A stretch of 64,000 bases of DNA from an uncultured Candidatus Saccharibacteria bacterium. Lineage in GTDB: Bacteria; Patescibacteriota; CAZHWT01. Under the pieces are notes generated by a model. The model did not search any database and was not told where the DNA came from. It was given only the letters and a program-made list of their open reading frames with translations. The translations under genes and the position numbers were made by a program. The DNA lies in NCBI GenBank assembly GCA_964597145.1, contig CAZQWH010000001.1, forward strand, positions 102,441-166,440, written 5' to 3'. Below are positions 15,113 through 62,489 of the stretch, in pieces (within the stretch, counting starts at the first letter, position 1; each line of letters opens with the position of its first letter).

Positions 15113-15469
15113 ATGTCAACACAAGGGTGTAATGAGATTGTCCGCGTTTACCCCGTTCCAATGGATGAGAAAGGTCAACATTTCAACAGTCCTTGCTGGA
15201 TCATTGCTCCAGATGGCCAGACACTGCTGATTGTCGGGGTATTCATAGAAGACCAGTCCCATCCACTCATCGGACCGTCTGGCCAAAAACTGAACGTATG
15301 CTTATTCGGCCTAGCCGATGGTATTATCACCATTTACGAAGCAGAGAGCGTACACCAGACCTACAAGTACGAGAGACAAAAACTGCAAGAATTGTTCAAG
15401 AGGATTCAGCAATTCATCCTCAATCCCGAGCGACATCCAACTTCCTACCTGGACTTGCAAGAAGAGTAG
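15113..15469 (+). CDS. Hypothetical protein
   Basis: ORF with a gcaaaggagg RBS. Confidence 0.35.
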   Translation: MSTQGCNEIVRVYPVPMDEKGQHFNSPCWIIAPDGQTLLIVGVFIEDQSHPLIGPSGQKLNVCLFGLADGIITIYEAESVHQTYKYERQKLQELFKRIQQFILNPERHPTSYLDLQEE

Positions 15470-16620: not shown

Positions 16621-17952
16621 ATGAAAACAATTAAAGTATCAATTCAAGATGAACATACGTTGCTGTTGCAGGAGGATGCCCAGAAGGGGGATTGCATCGA
16701 CCTAAAATCTATACATGAAACCGATATTGATAGGTCCAATGTAGAGGCGGTGATTGAGGCGCTGAAGAATGAAGCATTTGAGGCTGAAGTAGCCAAGCAG
16801 CGCTTGGCTGTAGAGCGGGAAAAATCTCTTGAGCTAAAAATGAAAGAGCAAGAACTTTTACACAAAATTAATCAACTTGAGAAAGAAGCAGCCAATGCCG
16901 TAGAGTTGGCACAAACTAAAACTAAAAGTGAGCTACAGGAAGAGTTGACTAAAAAAGAGACAGAAATCACCAAATTACAATCTCAACTCCAATCGCAAAC
17001 CCAAACTTCAGAGTCGGATAAAAGGTTAGCCCTCGCTGAAGCTGTCGGCCGAATAGAAAAAGAACGCGATCAACTGGCTTATGAACTCAAGAACAAGGAA
17101 TCTGAGAAGCAAGCCGAAGTCTTGCGACTAAACGAAAAGTTCCAAAATGAGCTGAAGACTAGAGATGAAATGATCGCCTACTACAAGGATATGAAGGCCA
17201 AACTGTCGACCAAGATGGTGGGTGAGACATTGGAACAGCATTGTGAGATTGAGTTTGAACGATTGCGAGCCACGGCTTTCCAAAAGGCTATCTTTGGCAA
17301 AGACAACGATGCCAGTAGCGGCAGTAAAGGCGACTATATTTACCGGGAAACTGATGAACAGGGCAATGAATTGATCTCTATCATGTTTGAAATGAAAAAT
17401 GAAGGGGAGGAGACGGCCACCAAGAAGCGTAACGATGATTTCTTGAAAGAGCTAGATAAAGATCGAATTGAGAAAAAATGTGAATATGCCGTGTTGGTTA
17501 GCCTACTAGAGTCTGATAGTGAACTCTACAATGGTGGCATTGTCGACAAATCGCACCAGTATAGCAAGATGTATGTTATCCGGCCTCAGTTTTTTATCCC
17601 GATGATTACGGTTTTGCGTAACGCGGCTCTCAATTCGCTGCAATACAAAGCTGAGCTGGCGATGGTGCGAAGTCAGAATATTGATGTGACGAATTTTGAA
17701 AATCAGCTGAGTGATTTTCAGACTGCTTTTGGTCGAAGTTTCAAACTAGCTCATGATCGCTTTTCCGACGCTATTGAAAACATCGATAAGTCTATTGCCC
17801 AGCTACAGAAAACCAAAGAAAATCTGCTAAAAGCTGACGATCACTATCGCATCGCCAACAGCAAGGCGGACGACTTAACCGTCAAAAAACTGACTCATGG
17901 CAATTCGACCATGACCGCCAAGTTTGCTGAGATTAAACCAGATAACCGTTAG
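16621..17952 (+). CDS. DUF2130/RmuC-like coiled-coil protein with C-terminal PD-(D/E)xK-like motif
   Basis: About 200 aa of heptad-rich E/K/Q coiled coil, then GDYIYRETDEQGNELISIMFEMK (D ... E-x-K). ggagaggtg RBS 6 nt before ATG 16621. Confidence 0.55.
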   Translation: MKTIKVSIQDEHTLLLQEDAQKGDCIDLKSIHETDIDRSNVEAVIEALKNEAFEAEVAKQRLAVEREKSLELKMKEQELLHKINQLEKEAANAVELAQTKTKSELQEELTKKETEITKLQSQLQSQTQTSESDKRLALAEAVGRIEKERDQLAYELKNKESEKQAEVLRLNEKFQNELKTRDEMIAYYKDMKAKLSTKMVGETLEQHCEIEFERLRATAFQKAIFGKDNDASSGSKGDYIYRETDEQGNELISIMFEMKNEGEETATKKRNDDFLKELDKDRIEKKCEYAVLVSLLESDSELYNGGIVDKSHQYSKMYVIRPQFFIPMITVLRNAALNSLQYKAELAMVRSQNIDVTNFENQLSDFQTAFGRSFKLAHDRFSDAIENIDKSIAQLQKTKENLLKADDHYRIANSKADDLTVKKLTHGNSTMTAKFAEIKPDNR

Positions 17953-35562: not shown

Positions 35563-35789
35563 TTGGTAGAGAGTAGACCCTCCCTCCCCATCATTCCCGC
35601 GCCCTAAGCCCTGAGCAGAGTCGAAGAGAAAGCGGAAATGACAATATAAGTACCAAAGGCCTGACCCCTAAAACGTATATACGCCCGTATATACGTTGGC
35701 CAAAATAACTCAGATAAATGATGGAAGGGTAGTGTGTAGGGTGGGATAGGAAACTAGAAGGCAGAAGGCAGAAGGCGGGATGATTAAAT

Positions 35790-35945
35790 ACAAAATTAGA
35801 AATTCGAAATGAGAAACAAATCACAAGCTCGAAATCACAAACACTAACCAAAAACCCGATATACGATATACGATCTTCGAATCCCTCCCGTCATCTCGCC
35901 TGTCCGCCTCTGGCGGAAGCAACCGCGTGGCGATCTTCTCTTTCT
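35790..35945 (+). repeat. Composite intergenic repeat (AT-rich tcgaaat module plus cgtcatctcgcctgtccgcctctggcggaagc module)
   Basis: Homologous to 9514-9735, 27822-27958 and 59436-59470. Confidence 0.65.
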
Positions 35946-35980
35946 CATCAAGATAGCCACAGTCGCTAGTACTTCTTATT

Positions 35981-36160
35981 CAAGCCTAATCCTTCAACCA
36001 TGAGCTTGAGACTGTCAAATGGGCGATGAACCCACGAGAGATCAGAGTCCAATGGCTTCGCAATACCGCATCCCGCATCCTGTATCCCGACACCCGACAC
36101 CCGACACCCGACACCCCTCCCGTCATTCTGGAACGAAGCGTAGCGAAGAGATAGAATCCC
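35981..36160 (+). repeat. Repeat element copy 1: cctaatccttcaaccatgagcttgagac module, internal (CCGACAC)4 microsatellite (36087-36114), then gtcattctgg module
   Basis: Aligns with 42109-42385 except that the internal microsatellite there is (CAGCATC)7. Confidence 0.7.
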
Positions 36161-36234
36161 TCCACTATGCACCGCTCAAAGTCCACCTCACCTGATAGCC
36201 ATGTTAAAAGATATATACAGAGATAAATACAAAG

Positions 36235-36264
36235 AATTATATAATTAATTATATAATTAAATTT
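36235..36264. promoter_or_regulatory. AT-only double palindrome, copy 2
   Basis: aattatataattaattatataattaaattt, identical to copy 1, upstream of the 36468 ORF. Confidence 0.6.
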
Positions 36265-37339: not shown

Positions 37340-37462
37340 GTAGCAGTCATGCTGGAGCCAAAGGTGATAGCTCTCTCATGAGAGCTGTAGGGGGATCCTA
37401 GGTGTTAAAGCACGAGCCGGTGCGCGTCTATTAAATACGCTATGCTCCAGAATGACCACATC
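37340..37462 (-). repeat. Repeat module gtcattctggagc...gtatttaatagacgc...ggctcgtgctttaacac (minus-strand copy)
   Basis: Reverse complement matches 42274-42385 and 59288-59352. Confidence 0.6.
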
Positions 37463-41956: not shown

Positions 41957-42108
41957 TCAACCGTGGTTATCGCGGATAATACAGAGCAGACAATATCCTG
42001 TCAAGAATTGACACCCACAATATTTGAAACAAATCCCAAACCAGACCTGCCCGCCATGCTTTCGCTGGCCAAGCAGGCAGGTTGCCGCAGTCGTTATCAC
42101 TCCTCATT

Positions 42109-42385
42109 CAAACCTAATCCTTCAACCATGAGCTTGAGACCGTCGAATGGGTGATGAGGCTTGAGTCTTTAGAGTCCAACAGCTTCACCATGACGTATAC
42201 TAACCTTCTCCAGCATCCAGCATCCAGCATCCAGCATCCAGCATCCAGCATCCAGCATCCCGACACCCTCCCCGTCATTCTGTCATTCGGCTCTGATCTC
42301 TAGCGACCTCATCGCTCAGACTCGAAGAGGAACGCAGTGTATTTTAGACGCGAAGCGGCTCGTGCTTTAGCACATAGAATCCCCT
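42109..42385 (+). repeat. Repeat element copy 2: cctaatccttcaaccatgagcttgagac module, (CAGCATC)7 microsatellite (42211-42260), then gtcattctgtcattcgg...gtattttagacgc...ggctcgtgctttagcacatagaatc module
   Basis: Aligns with 35981-36160 and 59288-59352. Confidence 0.7.
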
Positions 42386-58420: not shown

Positions 58421-59173
58421 ATGATCGAAATTAAAACCCCAGAACAACTCAAAATTATGGCCGAAGGTGGTCATGTCTTAGCCCAAGTTCGTCAGCAATT
58501 AATGGCAGCAGCCGTACCGGGAATCACCACCTTGGAGTTAGAAGATCTATCAGAGCAGCTCATTGCCAGCTTTGGTGCCACATCCAACTTTAAAGGTCAA
58601 TACGATTACCCCTACACCATTTTAACCAGTGTCAACGAGCAAGTTATTCATGGCAAGCCCAATAAACGAGTGCTACGGGCTGGCGATTTATTGTCAATTG
58701 ACGTTGGCTTGTTGTGGAAGAATTGGCATTTAGATACAACCGGCACCCTAATTGTTGGTGGCAAGGAGTCAGCCAACAAAGAAGTACGAGTGTTTGCTGC
58801 GAAAGGATACAAAATCTTAGACGCGGCCATTGCCCAAGCCAAAATTGGGAACCGAGTCGGTGATATTTCGGCCGCTATGCAGCAAGGCATAGAATCAGCC
58901 GGCTACTCTGCTGTCCGCGAATATGTGGGTCACGGCTTAGGCAGCGAACTGCACATGGATCCAATGGTGCCCTGCTATGGTAAGCCAGGTACAGGCCCAG
59001 AACTTAAACAAGGGATGACTCTAGCTATTGAAGTTATGATGAACGCCGGTGGCCCCTATGTCCGCACCTTAAAAGACGGCTGGACCGTAGTCACTAAAGA
59101 CGGATCAATTTCCGGCCAATTTGAACACACCGTAGCCATAACTTCGTCAGGCCCAAAGGTCCTGACGAAATAG
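58421..59173 (+). CDS. map: Methionine aminopeptidase type I
   Basis: Metal ligands, including the VGHGLG...H motif. Confidence 0.95.
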   Translation: MIEIKTPEQLKIMAEGGHVLAQVRQQLMAAAVPGITTLELEDLSEQLIASFGATSNFKGQYDYPYTILTSVNEQVIHGKPNKRVLRAGDLLSIDVGLLWKNWHLDTTGTLIVGGKESANKEVRVFAAKGYKILDAAIAQAKIGNRVGDISAAMQQGIESAGYSAVREYVGHGLGSELHMDPMVPCYGKPGTGPELKQGMTLAIEVMMNAGGPYVRTLKDGWTVVTKDGSISGQFEHTVAITSSGPKVLTK

Positions 59174-59199
59174 TAGGCACTGGGCACCTGCCCGCAAAC

Positions 59200-59560
59200 A
59201 CCAGCAAGCTGGCTTGCGTGGCGGGTGGGGTAGACAGACCTCTTCTCTTCGTCATTGCGAGGAACCAAGCGACGTGGCAATCTTCTCTGACTGTCATCCT
59301 GGAGCGGAGCGTATTTTAGACGCAAGTGGCTCGTGCACTAGCACATAGGATCTGGTCATCAAATCAGAAATCACAAAGCCTAAATACGAAACAAATTCCA
59401 ACTCAGAAGTTATAAGATTGAAACACATAACCGACCGTCATTGCGCCTGTCAGCCTCTGGCTAAAGCGGCCTGTGCTGAGCGCAGTCAAAACAAGCGCAT
59501 CATTCTCCTCTGATTGTCATTCTGGAGCCAGCGAAGCGTGGCGATAGAATCTTGAGAGCG
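59200..59560 (+). repeat. Intergenic mosaic repeat island (gtcattgcgagg module, gtcatcctggagcggagcgtattttagacgcaagtggctcgtgcactagcacatag module, partial AT-rich module, ccgtcattgcgcctgtcagcctctggc module, gtcattctggagccagcgaagcgtggcgatagaatc)
   Basis: Each sub-module has homologues at 428-475, 42274-42385, 37340-37462(-), 35876-35945 and 36121-36160. Confidence 0.65.
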
Positions 59561-59627
59561 CCAATCAGCAGAACAACGCAACCTATATACAACTCTTGCT
59601 AAGTATTATTTACAGAGTTAAATACAG

Positions 59628-59655
59628 TTAATTATATAATAAATTATATAATTAA
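59628..59655. promoter_or_regulatory. AT-only double palindrome, copy 3 (variant TTAATTATATAATAAATTATATAATTAA)
   Basis: About 120 bp upstream of ORF 59778. Confidence 0.6.
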
Positions 59656-59777
59656 CTAACGCATATTCTTTCAATCGTACCATAAGATTCCTAGAAAGAA
59701 TCTTATGGTAATTTACAAGTAGGTGGCTGTGTGGTATTTTATGTGACATTGCTCGATCTGAGTCTGGAGATAGATAA

Positions 59778-60065
59778 ATGGTGGCGACACATTACGATCT
59801 TTTTATGCCGCGTGAAGCTGTTGGAGATCGCAAACACGAGTTAGCAGGTTTGATCCACGAACTGACAGAGCTTGGAGTCACCGCAACTCTCGATTCCACT
59901 TCCTGGCCCGAAGTTCTATGGGTTATCATCCCACAGGGCACAACTGCGGAGACAGTAGGCGGCATCTTGCTTCTTGCCACCGTCCATTATAGACACTTAG
60001 GACTTAACAGCATCGGGGTAACGCCATCTATGCACAATGGCTCAGTTGCTCTCCGATTCAAGTAA
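59778..60065 (+). CDS. Hypothetical small protein (cassette gene 1)
   Basis: RBS ggag 9 nt upstream. Inserted between map and infA. Confidence 0.4.
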   Translation: MVATHYDLFMPREAVGDRKHELAGLIHELTELGVTATLDSTSWPEVLWVIIPQGTTAETVGGILLLATVHYRHLGLNSIGVTPSMHNGSVALRFK

Positions 60066-60182
60066 GGCTCAATCATTCATGGGCTCACTGACATCAGCGA
60101 GCCCATCCCTTATCTTCATTATTTGGTAAACTAAAACCATGTTAACACTAATGTATGTTAACACTAACAGAGATAAAAGTGA

Positions 60183-60213
60183 TTAATTATATAATAAATT
60201 ATATAATTAATTT
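60183..60213. promoter_or_regulatory. AT-only double palindrome, copy 4, ending 13 nt before the ATG of cassette gene 2
   Basis: ttaattatataataaattatataattaattt, followed by RBS aaaggtgg and ATG 60226. Confidence 0.6.
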
Positions 60214-60225
60214 GAAAGGTGGAAC

Positions 60226-60756
60226 ATGTCCAGTTTTGTCTATCATGCAGTGCCCAGAAACTTTCAGGGCACTACAATTTACCCACTCAACCAATTAAAA
60301 AACGTATATCCTACTATCTATACTGAGCGAGTTAAAGCTTACTCCTGGCGACCCGAGGTTATGGAGCAGCCAGTCCACCCTCTCAATTGCTTCTGGAATG
60401 ATTGTATATTCCTCACGGCCACACCGCCGCAATTAGTTAAGCAAGAATTGTATAAAATTGATCCAGGCCACCAGTTTCCATCCAAATTCTGGAAGATTGA
60501 TGCCCATACTTTAGAGCCTCAAAACACCACCATTTACAATTTTGCCACCAACGTTCGCCCACATCCTGCCCAAGATTTTTTACCGTATAACCCAGGTAAT
60601 CTTGAAGAATATACTCAAGTACCATCAAGAACCATAGAATATTGGCAGCAGTGCATTTACGAAGGCCGGAAAAGAATGCTGCTGTACTTGTATATTCCAC
60701 ACATTATGTACAAAGGCACCATCAACACTCGCGAATTGGAAATTGTGGAGGTATAG
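60226..60756 (+). CDS. Hypothetical aromatic-rich protein (cassette gene 2)
   Basis: 176 aa with a strong RBS. Its stop lies 2 nt before the next start. Confidence 0.45.
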   Translation: MSSFVYHAVPRNFQGTTIYPLNQLKNVYPTIYTERVKAYSWRPEVMEQPVHPLNCFWNDCIFLTATPPQLVKQELYKIDPGHQFPSKFWKIDAHTLEPQNTTIYNFATNVRPHPAQDFLPYNPGNLEEYTQVPSRTIEYWQQCIYEGRKRMLLYLYIPHIMYKGTINTRELEIVEV

Positions 60757-60758
60757 AC

Positions 60759-61574
60759 ATGTCGGCTGAAATTACGGTAAATAGCAATCCGGATATAGCT
60801 CTGTCGGGATATGTTCTTAATGTGCTTGGCTTAAAAAAACACCCTTGGACCAAGCGCGGTCCACTGGCTGGCGTGCCAGATGAGTTGATTGAGAAGGCAG
60901 CAGCATACATAGAGTTGAAGTCTAAAATCAGCTTTCAACAGCACCCATTAACAGATCTATCATCCCAAAACCAATCGACAAAGAACCTAATCAAAGAAAT
61001 TGAGCAACTACACAATCGCCAATTAGACCATTACACTGAGAATATTCAAGCCAGTCAGGACTTTTTACAAAAAGTTCTGGATCGAACCGAAGGTCAACTA
61101 GCAGATGTAATTGAGCAATCGACCCGGATATCGTGGCCGTTTGAGCAAGTGTATCTAGTGCCATCGCTTTACCAGGGCGGTACAGTGCATGGTCAGTATG
61201 TATTTATGGGATTCTTCCCCGGTAAGCCAGGAAAGAAAAATGCATCGGGAGTGATACATGAACTAGTTCATGTAAACACGTATGAAGCAAGCAAGCCGCT
61301 ACGGCAATCGTTAAAGCTACCCACGGACTCTATCGAAGCGGCAACCGTTTTAGTGACAAATAAAGCGGTACATCATCTCAATCACCAAATCAAATCTTTA
61401 GACCTGACCGACAACAGCTTTTCAACTTATTATCGAGACTATATTCTTGATCATGGTCAGAATTTAACCAACCTTGCTACTAAGCATGTTAAATATGCCG
61501 AGCTAGTGCAAGCAATTGACCAGTATTTCATCGACAACAAGTACCCGGGCTACTTTAAGCAGCATGGAATTTAG
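60759..61574 (+). CDS. Hypothetical HExxH-motif protein, putative zinc metallopeptidase (cassette gene 3)
   Basis: GVIHELVHVNTYE. Translationally coupled to gene 2. Confidence 0.45.
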   Translation: MSAEITVNSNPDIALSGYVLNVLGLKKHPWTKRGPLAGVPDELIEKAAAYIELKSKISFQQHPLTDLSSQNQSTKNLIKEIEQLHNRQLDHYTENIQASQDFLQKVLDRTEGQLADVIEQSTRISWPFEQVYLVPSLYQGGTVHGQYVFMGFFPGKPGKKNASGVIHELVHVNTYEASKPLRQSLKLPTDSIEAATVLVTNKAVHHLNHQIKSLDLTDNSFSTYYRDYILDHGQNLTNLATKHVKYAELVQAIDQYFIDNKYPGYFKQHGI

Positions 61575-61678
61575 TCCATTAGGAAGCTATATCCTATAGT
61601 AATTGACAATTTCCCTGAGTAGTAGTAATATACACCAACGTTAAGACCTTCTAGTTCTTGTCAAGAAAGGCAGAAGCT

Positions 61679-61987
61679 ATGTCGACGATGGTTAAACAGA
61701 TTTGTGTCAATTGTGGCAAGGAATTTGCAACCAACAACGGTTCCAATTCCTGCTACGATTGCACCTTGTCGCGGACTGCCGGCGGTCTGATTCCGGAGGA
61801 AGGTGACTTCCGCACTGCGCGTATCATCTCCGGAACGATGAGCAACCAGCAGCATCAAGACTTGGTTGGTGACTTGTCATCAATTGAGCTTGATGACCCT
61901 GCGCCGGAGACGGAGAATTGCCCGTACTGCGGGTACTATGACCGGCGCTGGTGCAATAGTAGCAATTGCCCGGGCTCTGAGAGTTAA
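61679..61987 (+). CDS. Hypothetical zinc-ribbon protein (cassette gene 4)
   Basis: CVNCGKE...CYDC...CPYCGYYDRRWCNSSNCPG. RBS gaaagg. Confidence 0.45.
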   Translation: MSTMVKQICVNCGKEFATNNGSNSCYDCTLSRTAGGLIPEEGDFRTARIISGTMSNQQHQDLVGDLSSIELDDPAPETENCPYCGYYDRRWCNSSNCPGSES

Positions 61988-62191
61988 TGGTATCTATCCA
62001 AACTTTCGGGTCGAGGTCTTGGAGTGCCAGCGGAAGCCTTGTTGGCCCCACCCCTGCTTGACCCATACGTCAGGCGTCTACCTGGACGACTCTTTCTTGT
62101 TTTTAATTGAATCTGCAGCCCTAATACCTTTGAGTTTTGACCTGTGATTCTGCCCTTTACCCTTAGAATTTTGACCTAGCTAACCGGAGTG

Positions 62192-62221
62192 TTGACTTCC
62201 AGGGGTTATATGCGTTATAAT
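62192..62221 (+). promoter_or_regulatory. Sigma70-like promoter TTGACT-18-TATAAT upstream of infA
   Basis: Consensus-like hexamers. Confidence 0.55.
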
Positions 62222-62229
62222 CCGCCAGT

Positions 62230-62258
62230 ATCACCAGAGATTACGGTGATCGTTTTTT
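62230..62258 (+). promoter_or_regulatory. Leader hairpin atcacc-agagattac-ggtgat plus T6, abutting the infA ATG
   Basis: The terminator-like hairpin sequesters the GGTGA SD-like element. It may be an attenuator or translational operator. Confidence 0.4.
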
Positions 62259-62489
62259 ATGGCCAATAGCAATAGTATTGAAATTGAGGGAGTAGTGGTT
62301 GAGGCGTTGCCTAACACTATGTTTCGGGTAAAGGTGGATATTGGCGATGGACGAGAACACATTGTGCTAACCACTCTTTCCGGGAAGATGAAGACCCGTT
62401 GGATTCGGGTTTTGCCCGGAGACAAAGTAAAACTAGTAGTTGTTCCGCCCGATTTAACCCAAGGTAGAATTATTTACCGCTTTAGATAA
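62259..62489 (+). CDS. infA: Translation initiation factor IF-1
   Basis: S1-like OB fold, [17 protein letters not shown]. Confidence 0.95.

Follow-up and report, generated by a model that had tools for sequence, protein, structure and literature searches.

A probable long-lived slot for differing accessory genes between map and infA in a small clade of Patescibacteria

We propose that the spacer between map and infA in this genome is an old slot that is shared across a small clade and that holds different accessory genes in different relatives, rather than being a single mobile module of four genes. We put the probability of this reading at roughly 60%. The window that we analyzed is 64,000 nucleotides long, and its map-infA spacer contains four ORFs, which we refer to as g1 to g4. 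A sequence-only reading of the window had described these as mobile or accessory cargo within a housekeeping operon, perhaps a toxin/immunity module.

The left edge of the slot is map (methionine aminopeptidase; 58421..59173; Pfam Peptidase_M24, E = 3.8e-39), which is the final gene of the secY-adk-map unit. The right edge is infA (IF-1; 62259..62489; Pfam eIF-1a, E = 1.3e-16), which is followed by rpmJ, rpsM, and rpsK in the gene calls for contigs that are identical to the window. map, infA, the four ORFs, and the promoter-like sites before g4 and infA are on the forward strand. From the end of map at 59173 to the start of infA at 62259, the gap is 3085 bp, while in 51 of 53 other genomes (a diverse set, with secY, map, and infA in this order) the two genes are 20-392 bp apart. 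Among those 53 genomes, only the two closest relatives, L009 and L010, have kilobase gaps. The spacer is indeed oversized within a conserved gene order, as was originally noticed. With secY-adk-map, 3.1 kb of other sequence, and then infA-rpmJ-rpsM-rpsK all collinear, this is an inter-operon insertion.

Small insertions between the operons of the conserved translation cluster are a recurrent and documented pattern, in which a few genes (<10 kb) lie between two cluster operons that are still collinear (PMC8046335). As in those cases, the slot holds a few unrelated genes, the flanking order is kept, and the inserted content is not retained by all descendants. The published cases are from Gammaproteobacteria and Bacilli, whereas this one is in Patescibacteria and at the map/infA junction. 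Also, the content here is wholly different among three related genomes and is mostly from uncurated families.

All four ORFs are present and co-directional, and each has a Shine-Dalgarno-like sequence. Other than frames that overlap them, there are no additional ORFs of 40 aa or more in the spacer. The four proteins do not match any housekeeping family or any curated family, in keeping with the accessory interpretation. No Rfam family was found anywhere in the window at gathering thresholds. With relaxed thresholds, there was a single weak match to NrrF within 59100-62300 (E = 0.14), which we dismissed.

The strongest evidence about the history of the slot comes from the relatives. SecY of the window's organism is 70% identical to that of L009 and 65% identical to that of L010, and map is 60% and 57% identical, respectively. 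The map-infA gap is 2892 bp in L009 and 4146 bp in L010. In L009, the slot contains a split His_Phos_1 gene, a 278-aa protein that is weakly similar to NTP_transf_2, and a 276-aa orphan. In L010, it contains a prolyl oligopeptidase of family S9 and three orphans (185, 151, and 133 aa). None of these are related to the genes in the window's slot. A fourth relative from the same run series (L128-L130) encodes, in this order, homologues of the 278-aa protein of L009 (71% identity), of g2 (53% identity), and of the 185-aa protein of L010 (57% identity). These values are comparable to the 57-70% identity that map, adk, and SecY show among these genomes. The contigs of this fourth relative are at most 1.5 kb long and its genes are not placeable between map and infA. 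Because L009 and L010 have kilobase gaps with unrelated genes and the fourth relative has this mixture of genes, we conclude that this is an old slot, common to the clade, with mosaic content. The clade is sampled by three genomes and one short set of contigs, and the comparison of content is at 65-70% SecY identity, which was the closest that we compared.

These results sharpen the original interpretation. The genes are accessory and lineage-specific, as was claimed, since the two nearest relatives carry unrelated genes; the same four genes were not seen across the lineage. They do not appear to be a recent or strain-specific capture, as the enlarged junction is common to the whole small clade, and a g2 homologue accompanies homologues of other relatives' slot genes at a divergence like that of housekeeping genes. 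The slot is found in one small clade of Saccharibacteria-labelled Patescibacteria. It would be a long-lived permissive site at the junction of two units (secY-adk-map, and infA-rpmJ-rpsM-rpsK onward), with each lineage retaining its own selection from a pool of small accessory genes that is partly shared.

The conservation of the region just upstream of infA may explain why the site is permissive. It contains a promoter-like consensus match (TTGACT-18-TATAAT, 62192-62221) and a leader hairpin, together spanning 62192..62263. The hairpin pairs the Shine-Dalgarno sequence (GGTGAT, 62245-62250) and the UG of the infA start codon. The promoter and leader are nearly identical in L009 and L010, and a 22-nt insertion in L009 is confined to the loop. 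Such conservation across the three genomes means that infA did not gain its promoter recently, contrary to the proposal of a "fresh" one. In our reading, infA in this clade has its own conserved sigma-70-type promoter and a leader that sequesters the Shine-Dalgarno sequence, so insertions upstream would probably leave the expression of the ribosomal genes undisturbed.

Could the strain have captured a recent mobile element, or a series of integron-like cassettes with AT-rich palindromes as recombination sites? The slot's genes do match the codon usage of the genome more poorly than housekeeping genes do (the GC3 of g4 is 0.63, versus about 0.45 for the genome), there is a palindrome before each of two gene units, and some members of the g2 family adjoin IS transposases or lie on plasmids or in a phage. 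However, the spacer contains no integrase, transposase, or other recombinase, the four proteins do not match any recombinase family, no direct repeats flank the spacer, and there are no tRNA or tmRNA genes in the window. The run series yielded eight independent contigs, all of which agree with the window at 100% identity; none of them (0/8) has an empty site, and we found no relatives in viral contigs. The enlarged junction is clade-wide and the nearest homologue of g2 is about as diverged as vertically inherited genes are. We consider recent mobile capture to be very unlikely.

The palindromes and the repeat island in the spacer are real, but they are not the boundaries of a cassette. The palindrome is a 28-nt AT-only sequence (TTAATTATATAATAAATTATATAATTAA) that occurs at 59628-59655 and at 60183-60210 (0 chance matches expected). 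Both copies that were originally reported are there, and near-identical copies at 2599 and 36233 bring the total in the window to four, so the palindrome is not specific to the map-infA region. The distant copies precede a UDG-like gene and another ORF, and the palindrome is absent from the loci that we fetched from relatives. Similarly, the repeat island next to map (59174..59600, reported as 59200-59560) consists of dispersed, GC-rich, non-coding modules (such as 59250-59282, 59293-59311, 59313-59353, and 59516-59534). Modules recur in the window at 446, 36122, 37346, 37438, and 42340 (5 matches versus 0.15 expected), and GC-rich regions with such modules lie at 331-466, 35586-36160, 37346-37456, and 42080-42382. 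The island does not match any Rfam family, and at this position L009 carries a repeat island that differs from it.

The first palindrome, together with an upstream ACAGAGTTAAATACAG motif (59612..59655), is 123 nt before g1. It is followed by a perfect 13-bp inverted repeat (TACCATAAGATTC / GAATCTTATGGTA, with a 7-nt loop; 59678..59710) that abuts a weak promoter-like site (59712-59740); the inverted repeat might have an operator-like role. The second palindrome, together with a ACAGAGATAAAAGTGA motif, is 16 nt before g2, and it is preceded by two copies of a 13-nt direct repeat (ATGTTAACACTAA, 60139-60167; the combined region is 60139..60210). We considered whether the palindromes could be canonical promoters, but the closest hexamer of the -35 type (TTTACA) lies some 20 nt away from the first TATAAT, which does not support this idea. 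At the right boundary, the repeats that had been reported are present as two copies of a 26-nt direct repeat (62118..62177, 77% identity) that contain TTTGACCT and end in TTTTGACCT. They sit just upstream of the infA promoter, and T-rich repeats of the TTTGA type occupy the corresponding position in L010.

Two of the four ORFs belong to conserved but uncurated families. The first of these is g2 (60226..60756), which encodes 176 amino acids, 14.8% of them F, Y, or W. The predicted structure of g2 is confident and matches the ADP-ribosyltransferase fold at the level of the superfamily; the nearest solved structure is DarT (PDB 7OMU, 7OMV, and 7YK3). Sequence searches were negative: neither g2 nor any of 11 family members has a match in Pfam (E up to 10), g2 has no match in NCBIfam, PADLOC, or PHROGs, it does not match the DarT/DUF4433 sequence models, and a search of PDB sequences with the family's profile gave only chance matches. 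Across an alignment of 13 family members, Y39, D59, T136, and H159 are the polar residues that never vary, and no Arg or Glu is invariant at any position. In contrast, catalysis by DarT requires a conserved Arg and Glu (R51 and E160 in the Thermus DarT; PMC9967889). We consider g2 most likely to be a transferase of the ADP-ribosyltransferase superfamily that uses NAD+ and whose active site is non-canonical.

The g2 family is found in Patescibacteria-type contigs, on megaplasmids of Bacillaceae, in Alphaproteobacteria and Actinomycetes, and in a phage. We found no relatives in viral contigs, and a fold search against BFVD gave only weak matches to uncharacterized viral proteins. DarT is paired with an antitoxin, whereas members of the g2 family are usually solitary, with unrelated neighbors: they stand alone amid glyoxalase, Ble-like, DrrA-type ABC, or VanY genes, IS elements, a beta-lactamase, or a carotenoid cluster.

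The second uncurated family is that of g3 (60759..61574; 271 aa). Its structure is also predicted with confidence and matches the zincin fold at the superfamily level. The HExxH motif (HELVH, residues 167-171) is conserved, as the original claim would predict, and a downstream glutamate (E193) lies on the next helix, which is the arrangement in gluzincins (clan MA). (The scan for conserved patterns used a 10-member subset of the family because the full alignment is too diverse.) The closest known proteins are gluzincins (M1 aminopeptidases and thermolysin) and the minimal zincins Wss1 and SprT. By itself, g3 does not match any curated peptidase family in Pfam or NCBIfam. The g3 family's matches to curated peptidase models are sub-threshold (0.006 for SprT-like, 0.011 for eCIS_core, and 0.037 for Peptidase_MA_2) and come from a few of its 28 members. 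A PDB sequence search with the family's profile gave only chance matches. There was also a weak, sub-threshold PADLOC match of g3 to Cas11a (E = 0.006) and no membership in PHROGs. We found no matches to g3 in plasmids or phages and no relatives of the family in viral contigs.

The zincin-like fold and HExxH motif are shared with alpha-ketoglutarate-dependent peptide hydroxylases (ChlH, BpmH, and PflC; IPR026337). Those hydroxylases are encoded next to radical SAM genes, and members of the g3 family often are as well: in at least four metagenome contexts (L099/L100, L101, L105, and L119), they adjoin genes of the radical SAM/SPASM maturase type. (L100 has Radical_SAM and SPASM domains beside the g3 homologue, and the other three have ORFs with CxxxCxxC.) However, neither g3 nor any of the 28 family members matches the NCBIfam model for the TIGR04267-type HExxH hydroxylase (E up to 1), and M1 and thermolysin-type peptidases outscore ChlH in the fold comparison. 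We believe that g3 is most likely a metal-dependent hydrolase that acts on peptides, or possibly an oxygenase. Downstream (3') of six g3 homologues, there is a recurrent 90-aa ORF, which has an implausible composition and no Rfam family and is probably conserved non-coding DNA.

The remaining two ORFs are orphans. We did not find homologues of g1 or g4 in the collections that we searched, and each is a singleton in clustering at 90% identity. g1 (59778..60065; 95 aa) starts at an ATG with GGAGA 7 nt before it, and it has no match in Pfam, NCBIfam, PADLOC, PHROGs, plasmids, or viral contigs. g4 (61679..61987; 102 aa) has two Cys4 clusters (C9, C12, C25, C28 and C81, C84, C92, C97) that are separated by a low-complexity linker. 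Its zinc-ribbon matches in Pfam are sub-threshold, PADLOC and PHROGs assign it to no family, and searches of plasmids and viral contigs found nothing similar. For both orphans, codon usage fails to distinguish the proposed frame from the alternatives. They are supported as genes only by ORF length and ribosome-binding sites, and they may not be genes. In three contigs whose DNA is 100% identical to the window, a 156-aa gene was called over g4, which is an artifact: this frame is open only if TGA is a sense codon.

Several observations argue against a single four-gene module. The slot contains at least three promoter-like starts, and g1, g2-g3, g4, and infA are each preceded by a separate region with a promoter-like site or a palindrome, which for g4 includes TTGACA-17-TAATAT (61603..61631; a consensus match at 10/12 positions). 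The slot would then comprise at least three separately promoted units: the orphan g1, the g2-g3 bicistron, and the orphan g4 with its two putative zinc ribbons. The suggested translational coupling of g2 and g3 is well founded: g3 starts 2 nt past the stop codon of g2, with GGAGG 8 nt upstream of its start. This shows that the two are co-expressed in this genome. However, in profile searches of all of the loci that we fetched, the window is the only place where ORFs of the g2 and g3 families adjoin; the partner is absent from about 13 other contexts of the g2 family and about 27 of the g3 family. Homologues of g1, g2, or g4 are never beside g3 homologues, so a recurring pair of an HExxH protein and a zinc-ribbon protein was not seen. 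The closest homologue of g2 overlaps a different downstream gene, from the unrelated 185-aa family.

These results bear on two more specific proposals, a toxin-immunity module and a peptide-modifying module, neither of which is supported. In the first, g2 and g3 (and possibly g4) would be a toxin-antitoxin or toxin-immunity system in which g2 is a DarT-like ADP-ribosylating toxin and g3 neutralizes it, reverses its modification, or processes it. The DarT-like fold of g2, which is typical of toxins, lends unexpected support to a toxin-like component, and the tight coupling and the variable, accessory location are as expected. Also, a distant g2 homologue on a Thioclava plasmid adjoins a divergently transcribed DUF2268 zincin, which could hint at a functional link between the g2 fold and zincins. 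(g3 is unrelated to this zincin: the hhalign probability is 2.7%, and only the HExxH motif is in common.) Against this, pairing of the two families is not conserved, the closest g2 homologue has another partner, the canonical Arg and Glu are not invariant, and PADLOC gave no hit beyond g3's sub-threshold one. The antitoxin of DarTG is a macrodomain (DarG) or NADAR, whereas g3 has a zincin fold and no match to Macro or NADAR. We view such a conflict module as quite unlikely.

In the second proposal, g2 and g3 would belong to a RiPP-like, peptide-modifying set together with a small ORF, either g4 or g1, that encodes a Cys-rich substrate peptide; g2 would be an ADP-ribosyltransferase, and g3 would tailor the peptide as an HExxH enzyme that is either hydrolytic or dependent on alpha-ketoglutarate and Fe. 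RiPP pathways with an ADP-ribosyltransferase (MicD) or with alpha-ketoglutarate-dependent HExxH enzymes are known (PMC12912966, PMC12636437), g3-family genes adjoin radical SAM/SPASM genes, and g4 is small and Cys-rich. But the window's slot contains no radical SAM gene or precursor peptide, the hydroxylase model and the fold comparison point away from ChlH, and the g2 and g3 families are unlinked elsewhere. Furthermore, g4 has its own promoter-like site and no homologues, and it looks less like a leader-core peptide than like a double zinc ribbon. We consider this highly unlikely. More broadly, g2 and g3 could form an undescribed two-enzyme system, either a toxin and its neutralizer or a pair that tailors g4 as a Cys-rich peptide; this seems unlikely. 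Such a system would combine a DarT-like protein that lacks the canonical Glu and Arg with a radical-SAM-associated HExxH enzyme, in a clade-wide cassette slot. Instead, we think that g2 and g3 are most likely independent accessory enzymes rather than an obligate pair.

The slot extends the pattern of insertions that was described in Gammaproteobacteria and Bacilli and does not overturn the current understanding. Two uncurated families merit family models and biochemical study: the solitary family with a DarT-like fold, and the zincin-fold HExxH family that adjoins radical SAM/SPASM genes. If our reading is correct, then accessory genes can gain a stable landing slot even at the map-infA junction, in a lineage of Patescibacteria with reduced genomes.

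The window has the usual gene order (rplE ... rplO-secY-adk-map, then infA-rpmJ-rpsM-rpsK), with 3085 bp between the end of map (59173) and the start of infA (62259). In 80 loci that we fetched around SecY homologues, secY, map, and infA were in order in 53, and the map-infA distance was 20-392 bp in 51 of those 53. The only exceptions were L009 (2892 bp) and L010 (4146 bp), which are the window's nearest relatives (70% and 65% identity in SecY) and are both labelled uncultured Candidatus Saccharibacteria. The gap is 77 bp in L011 and 63 bp in L014, two more distantly related Patescibacteria. Since kilobase gaps occur only in the window and its two nearest relatives, the enlarged junction characterises a small clade, not a single strain. 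It is real and unusual. Contigs recovered from public runs match the window at 100% identity (8 of 8). Small insertions between operons of the conserved translation gene cluster are known (PMC8046335), and the window is another instance, in Patescibacteria and at the map|infA junction.

The initial 600 bp of this gap, or slot, are non-coding, with GC-rich repeat modules, an AT-only palindrome, and a perfect 13-bp inverted repeat. The gap's four co-directional ORFs each have a Shine-Dalgarno-like sequence: g1 (59778-60065, 95 aa); g2 (60226-60756, 176 aa, 14.8% aromatic residues); g3 (60759-61574, 271 aa, HELVH at 167-171); and g4 (61679-61987, 102 aa, cysteine clusters at 9/12/25/28 and 81/84/92/97). 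The g2 stop is 2 nt before the start of g3, and GGAGG lies 8 nt upstream of g3. The sequence-only reading had described the ORFs, repeats, and AT palindromes accurately, and all are present. At curated thresholds, Pfam and NCBIfam give no match for any of the four proteins; their matches to PADLOC and PHROGs are weak and at chance level (E of 0.006 or worse), and each is a singleton 90% cluster. For g1 and g4, we found no relatives in plasmid and viral contig collections, and codon usage does not establish either as coding. (GC3 of g4 is 0.63, versus about 0.45 for the genome.) A 156-aa gene called over g4 in public data (L003-L005, which match window 61713-62183 exactly) has an open frame only when TGA counts as a sense codon, so it is an artefact of the gene caller's code.

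The palindromes and the repeat island had been taken for features of a mobile cassette, but both recur elsewhere in the window. The AT-only 28-nt palindrome (TTAATTATATAA twice, plus TTAA) has four copies in 64 kb (2599-2626, 36233-36260, 59628-59655, and 60183-60210), with zero matches expected by chance, and is not cassette-specific. The copies are near-identical, share an upstream ACAGAG(A/T)TAAA motif, and lie 16-148 nt upstream of + strand ORFs: a UDG-like gene of the UDG superfamily (2599 copy), an orphan (36233 copy), g1, and g2 (16 nt after the 60183-60210 copy). We did not find the palindrome in the relatives' fetched loci; it may serve a small regulon, as its operator or as an unusual promoter. 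The GC-rich modules (such as GTCATYCTGGARC..., CGTCATTGCGAG..., and GTATTTTAGACGC..GGCTCGTGC..TAGCACATAG) are dispersed over several intergenic regions (331-466, 35586-36160, 37346-37456, 42080-42382, and 59250-59534) and give rise to spurious short ORFs; the repeat set after map in L009 is different. Elsewhere in the window, 6.1 kb of ORFs that match nothing in Pfam lie between the two copies of a direct repeat roughly 330 nt long (35951-36130 and 42079-42282; its segments are 85% and 72% identical). The bracketed region has an AT palindrome at its start, stops a short way upstream of the rpsL promoter, and could be a second variable islet, located where the str operon begins.

The spacer itself has no tRNA gene, recombinase-like ORF, or flanking direct repeat, and nothing indicates a mobile element there. 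As g4 has its own promoter-like site (TTGACA-17-TAATAT), the slot appears to be at least three transcription units instead of one operon. The promoter-like TTGACT-18-TATAAT of infA (62192-62221) had been considered fresh, but promoter and leader are almost identical in the window (62192-62263), L009 (about 15380-15455), and L010 (about 16760-16835), which argues that the promoter is ancestral to the clade and was not created anew by the insertion. Folding of the leader leaves both the Shine-Dalgarno sequence (GGUGAU) and the start codon's UG base-paired, and a 22-nt insertion in L009 falls in the loop only. This hairpin has no match in Rfam and is a candidate element for translational control of IF-1.

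The enlarged spacer is common to the relatives, which argues against strain-specific capture, but the gene content is different in each, so the accessory part of the earlier proposal holds. The L009 slot contains a histidine-phosphatase gene that is split, a protein of 278 aa weakly similar to nucleotidyltransferases, and an orphan of 276 aa; the L010 slot contains an S9 prolyl oligopeptidase (679 aa) and orphans of 185, 151, and 133 aa. Neither set resembles the other or g1-g4. The closest homologue of g2 (P0008, 53% identity) is on short contigs, L128-L130, that come from the sequencing-run series to which the window's organism also belongs. Upstream of P0008 is a homologue of the 278-aa protein (71% identical), and there is a 4-nt overlap between the stop of P0008 and the start of a homologue of the 185-aa protein (57% identical). 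Thus, genes private to the slots of three genomes stand side by side in a fourth, on contigs too short to place between map and infA. They are as diverged as map, adk, and SecY are between these genomes (57-70% identity). Adjacency and divergence together point to an old slot with mosaic content, which came from a common pool via differential retention, shuffling, or both; they do not point to recent capture. A recent mobile insertion would account for the atypical composition, but given that the slot is common to the clade and has no mobility genes, we consider this quite improbable. We also note that the 185-aa family (L128 1162-1503, L129 904-1305, and L010 14853-15410) matches nothing in Pfam and carries the motif YVFHG[ST] at its N-terminal end; its L010 member comes 4 nt after the S9 peptidase, and the one in L128 overlaps the g2 homologue at the latter's stop codon.

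We found 10 homologues of g2 (32-53% identity), with distant members on Cytobacillus and Bacillus megaplasmids, a Thioclava plasmid, a Nonomuraea plasmid, and Stenotrophomonas phage TS-12. An AlphaFold2 model built with the homologue alignment (pLDDT 91) has an ADP-ribosyltransferase fold, closest to that of the toxin DarT. By sequence (Pfam, PADLOC, and NCBIfam), g2 does not belong to DarT. DarT needs R51 and E160 for catalysis (PMC9967889), whereas in the g2 family a Tyr-His motif is present in beta-1 and no Arg or Glu is invariant. We predict that g2 is probably an NAD+-dependent transferase with a non-canonical active site. Its homologues are mostly solitary, with neighbours such as glyoxalase/bleomycin-resistance-like genes, a DrrA-type ABC transporter, VanY, a beta-lactamase, IS transposases, and a methyltransferase. 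One adjoins a divergently transcribed DUF2268 zincin, which has no relationship to g3 apart from the HExxH motif.

For g3, a word-indexed search gave no homologue and an exhaustive phmmer search gave 28 remote relatives of similar length. H167, E168, and H171 are invariant, N173 and E193 nearly so, and the model (pLDDT 95.8) has three strands, the HExxH helix, and then a helix with E193. The family matches no curated peptidase or HExxH hydroxylase model. We predict that g3 is probably a metal-dependent peptide hydrolase or oxygenase; both g2 and g3 are new families within well-known superfamilies. On AT-rich metagenome contigs (L099-L101, L104 3830-5594, L105 173-1905, L110 3047-5582, and L119 4830-8730), g3 homologues repeatedly adjoin radical SAM/SPASM genes (L099/L100, L101, L105, and L119), and they also form tandem arrays with two or three further HExxH ORFs that are unrelated to one another and to g3 and have no Pfam match. 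These may be peptide-maturation neighbourhoods. The radical SAM association of the g3 family, together with published RiPP pathways that use ADP-ribosyltransferase and HExxH enzymes (PMC12912966, PMC12636437), suggests a RiPP-like tailoring set for the slot, but it has no radical SAM gene or recognisable precursor, and this is the least likely of the alternatives. Directly downstream of six g3-family genes is a conserved stretch of about 270 nt (L107 884-1210, L110 5594-5866, L111, L112, L117, and L122); its translation is implausible (Cys/His/Phe-rich), it has no Rfam match at gathering thresholds, and it is probably a conserved non-coding element.

The HExxH and zinc-ribbon proteins had also been suggested to form a conserved pair, perhaps a metallopeptidase-based toxin-immunity module. 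In about 27 g3-family contexts, no g3 homologue had a g4-like neighbour. Across these and about 13 g2-family contexts, profile searches of every fetched locus found the g2 and g3 families adjacent only in the window. The suggested pair thus finds no support. That g2 and g3 are a toxin and its neutraliser is suggested by the fold of g2 and by their coupling, but with the pairing not conserved, the catalytic Glu and Arg absent from g2, and no match to a defence model, we view it as unlikely.

We propose instead, at roughly 60% probability, that the slot is a permissive, clade-wide site at an operon junction, filled by accessory genes that would act independently, including the putative g2 transferase and the g3 hydrolase or oxygenase. 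The autonomous infA promoter would keep this cargo harmless, and is a plausible explanation for why the junction tolerates it. The value of these findings lies mostly in the two families that lack curation and in the mosaic slot, which offers a small model for how genes turn over in a reduced genome.
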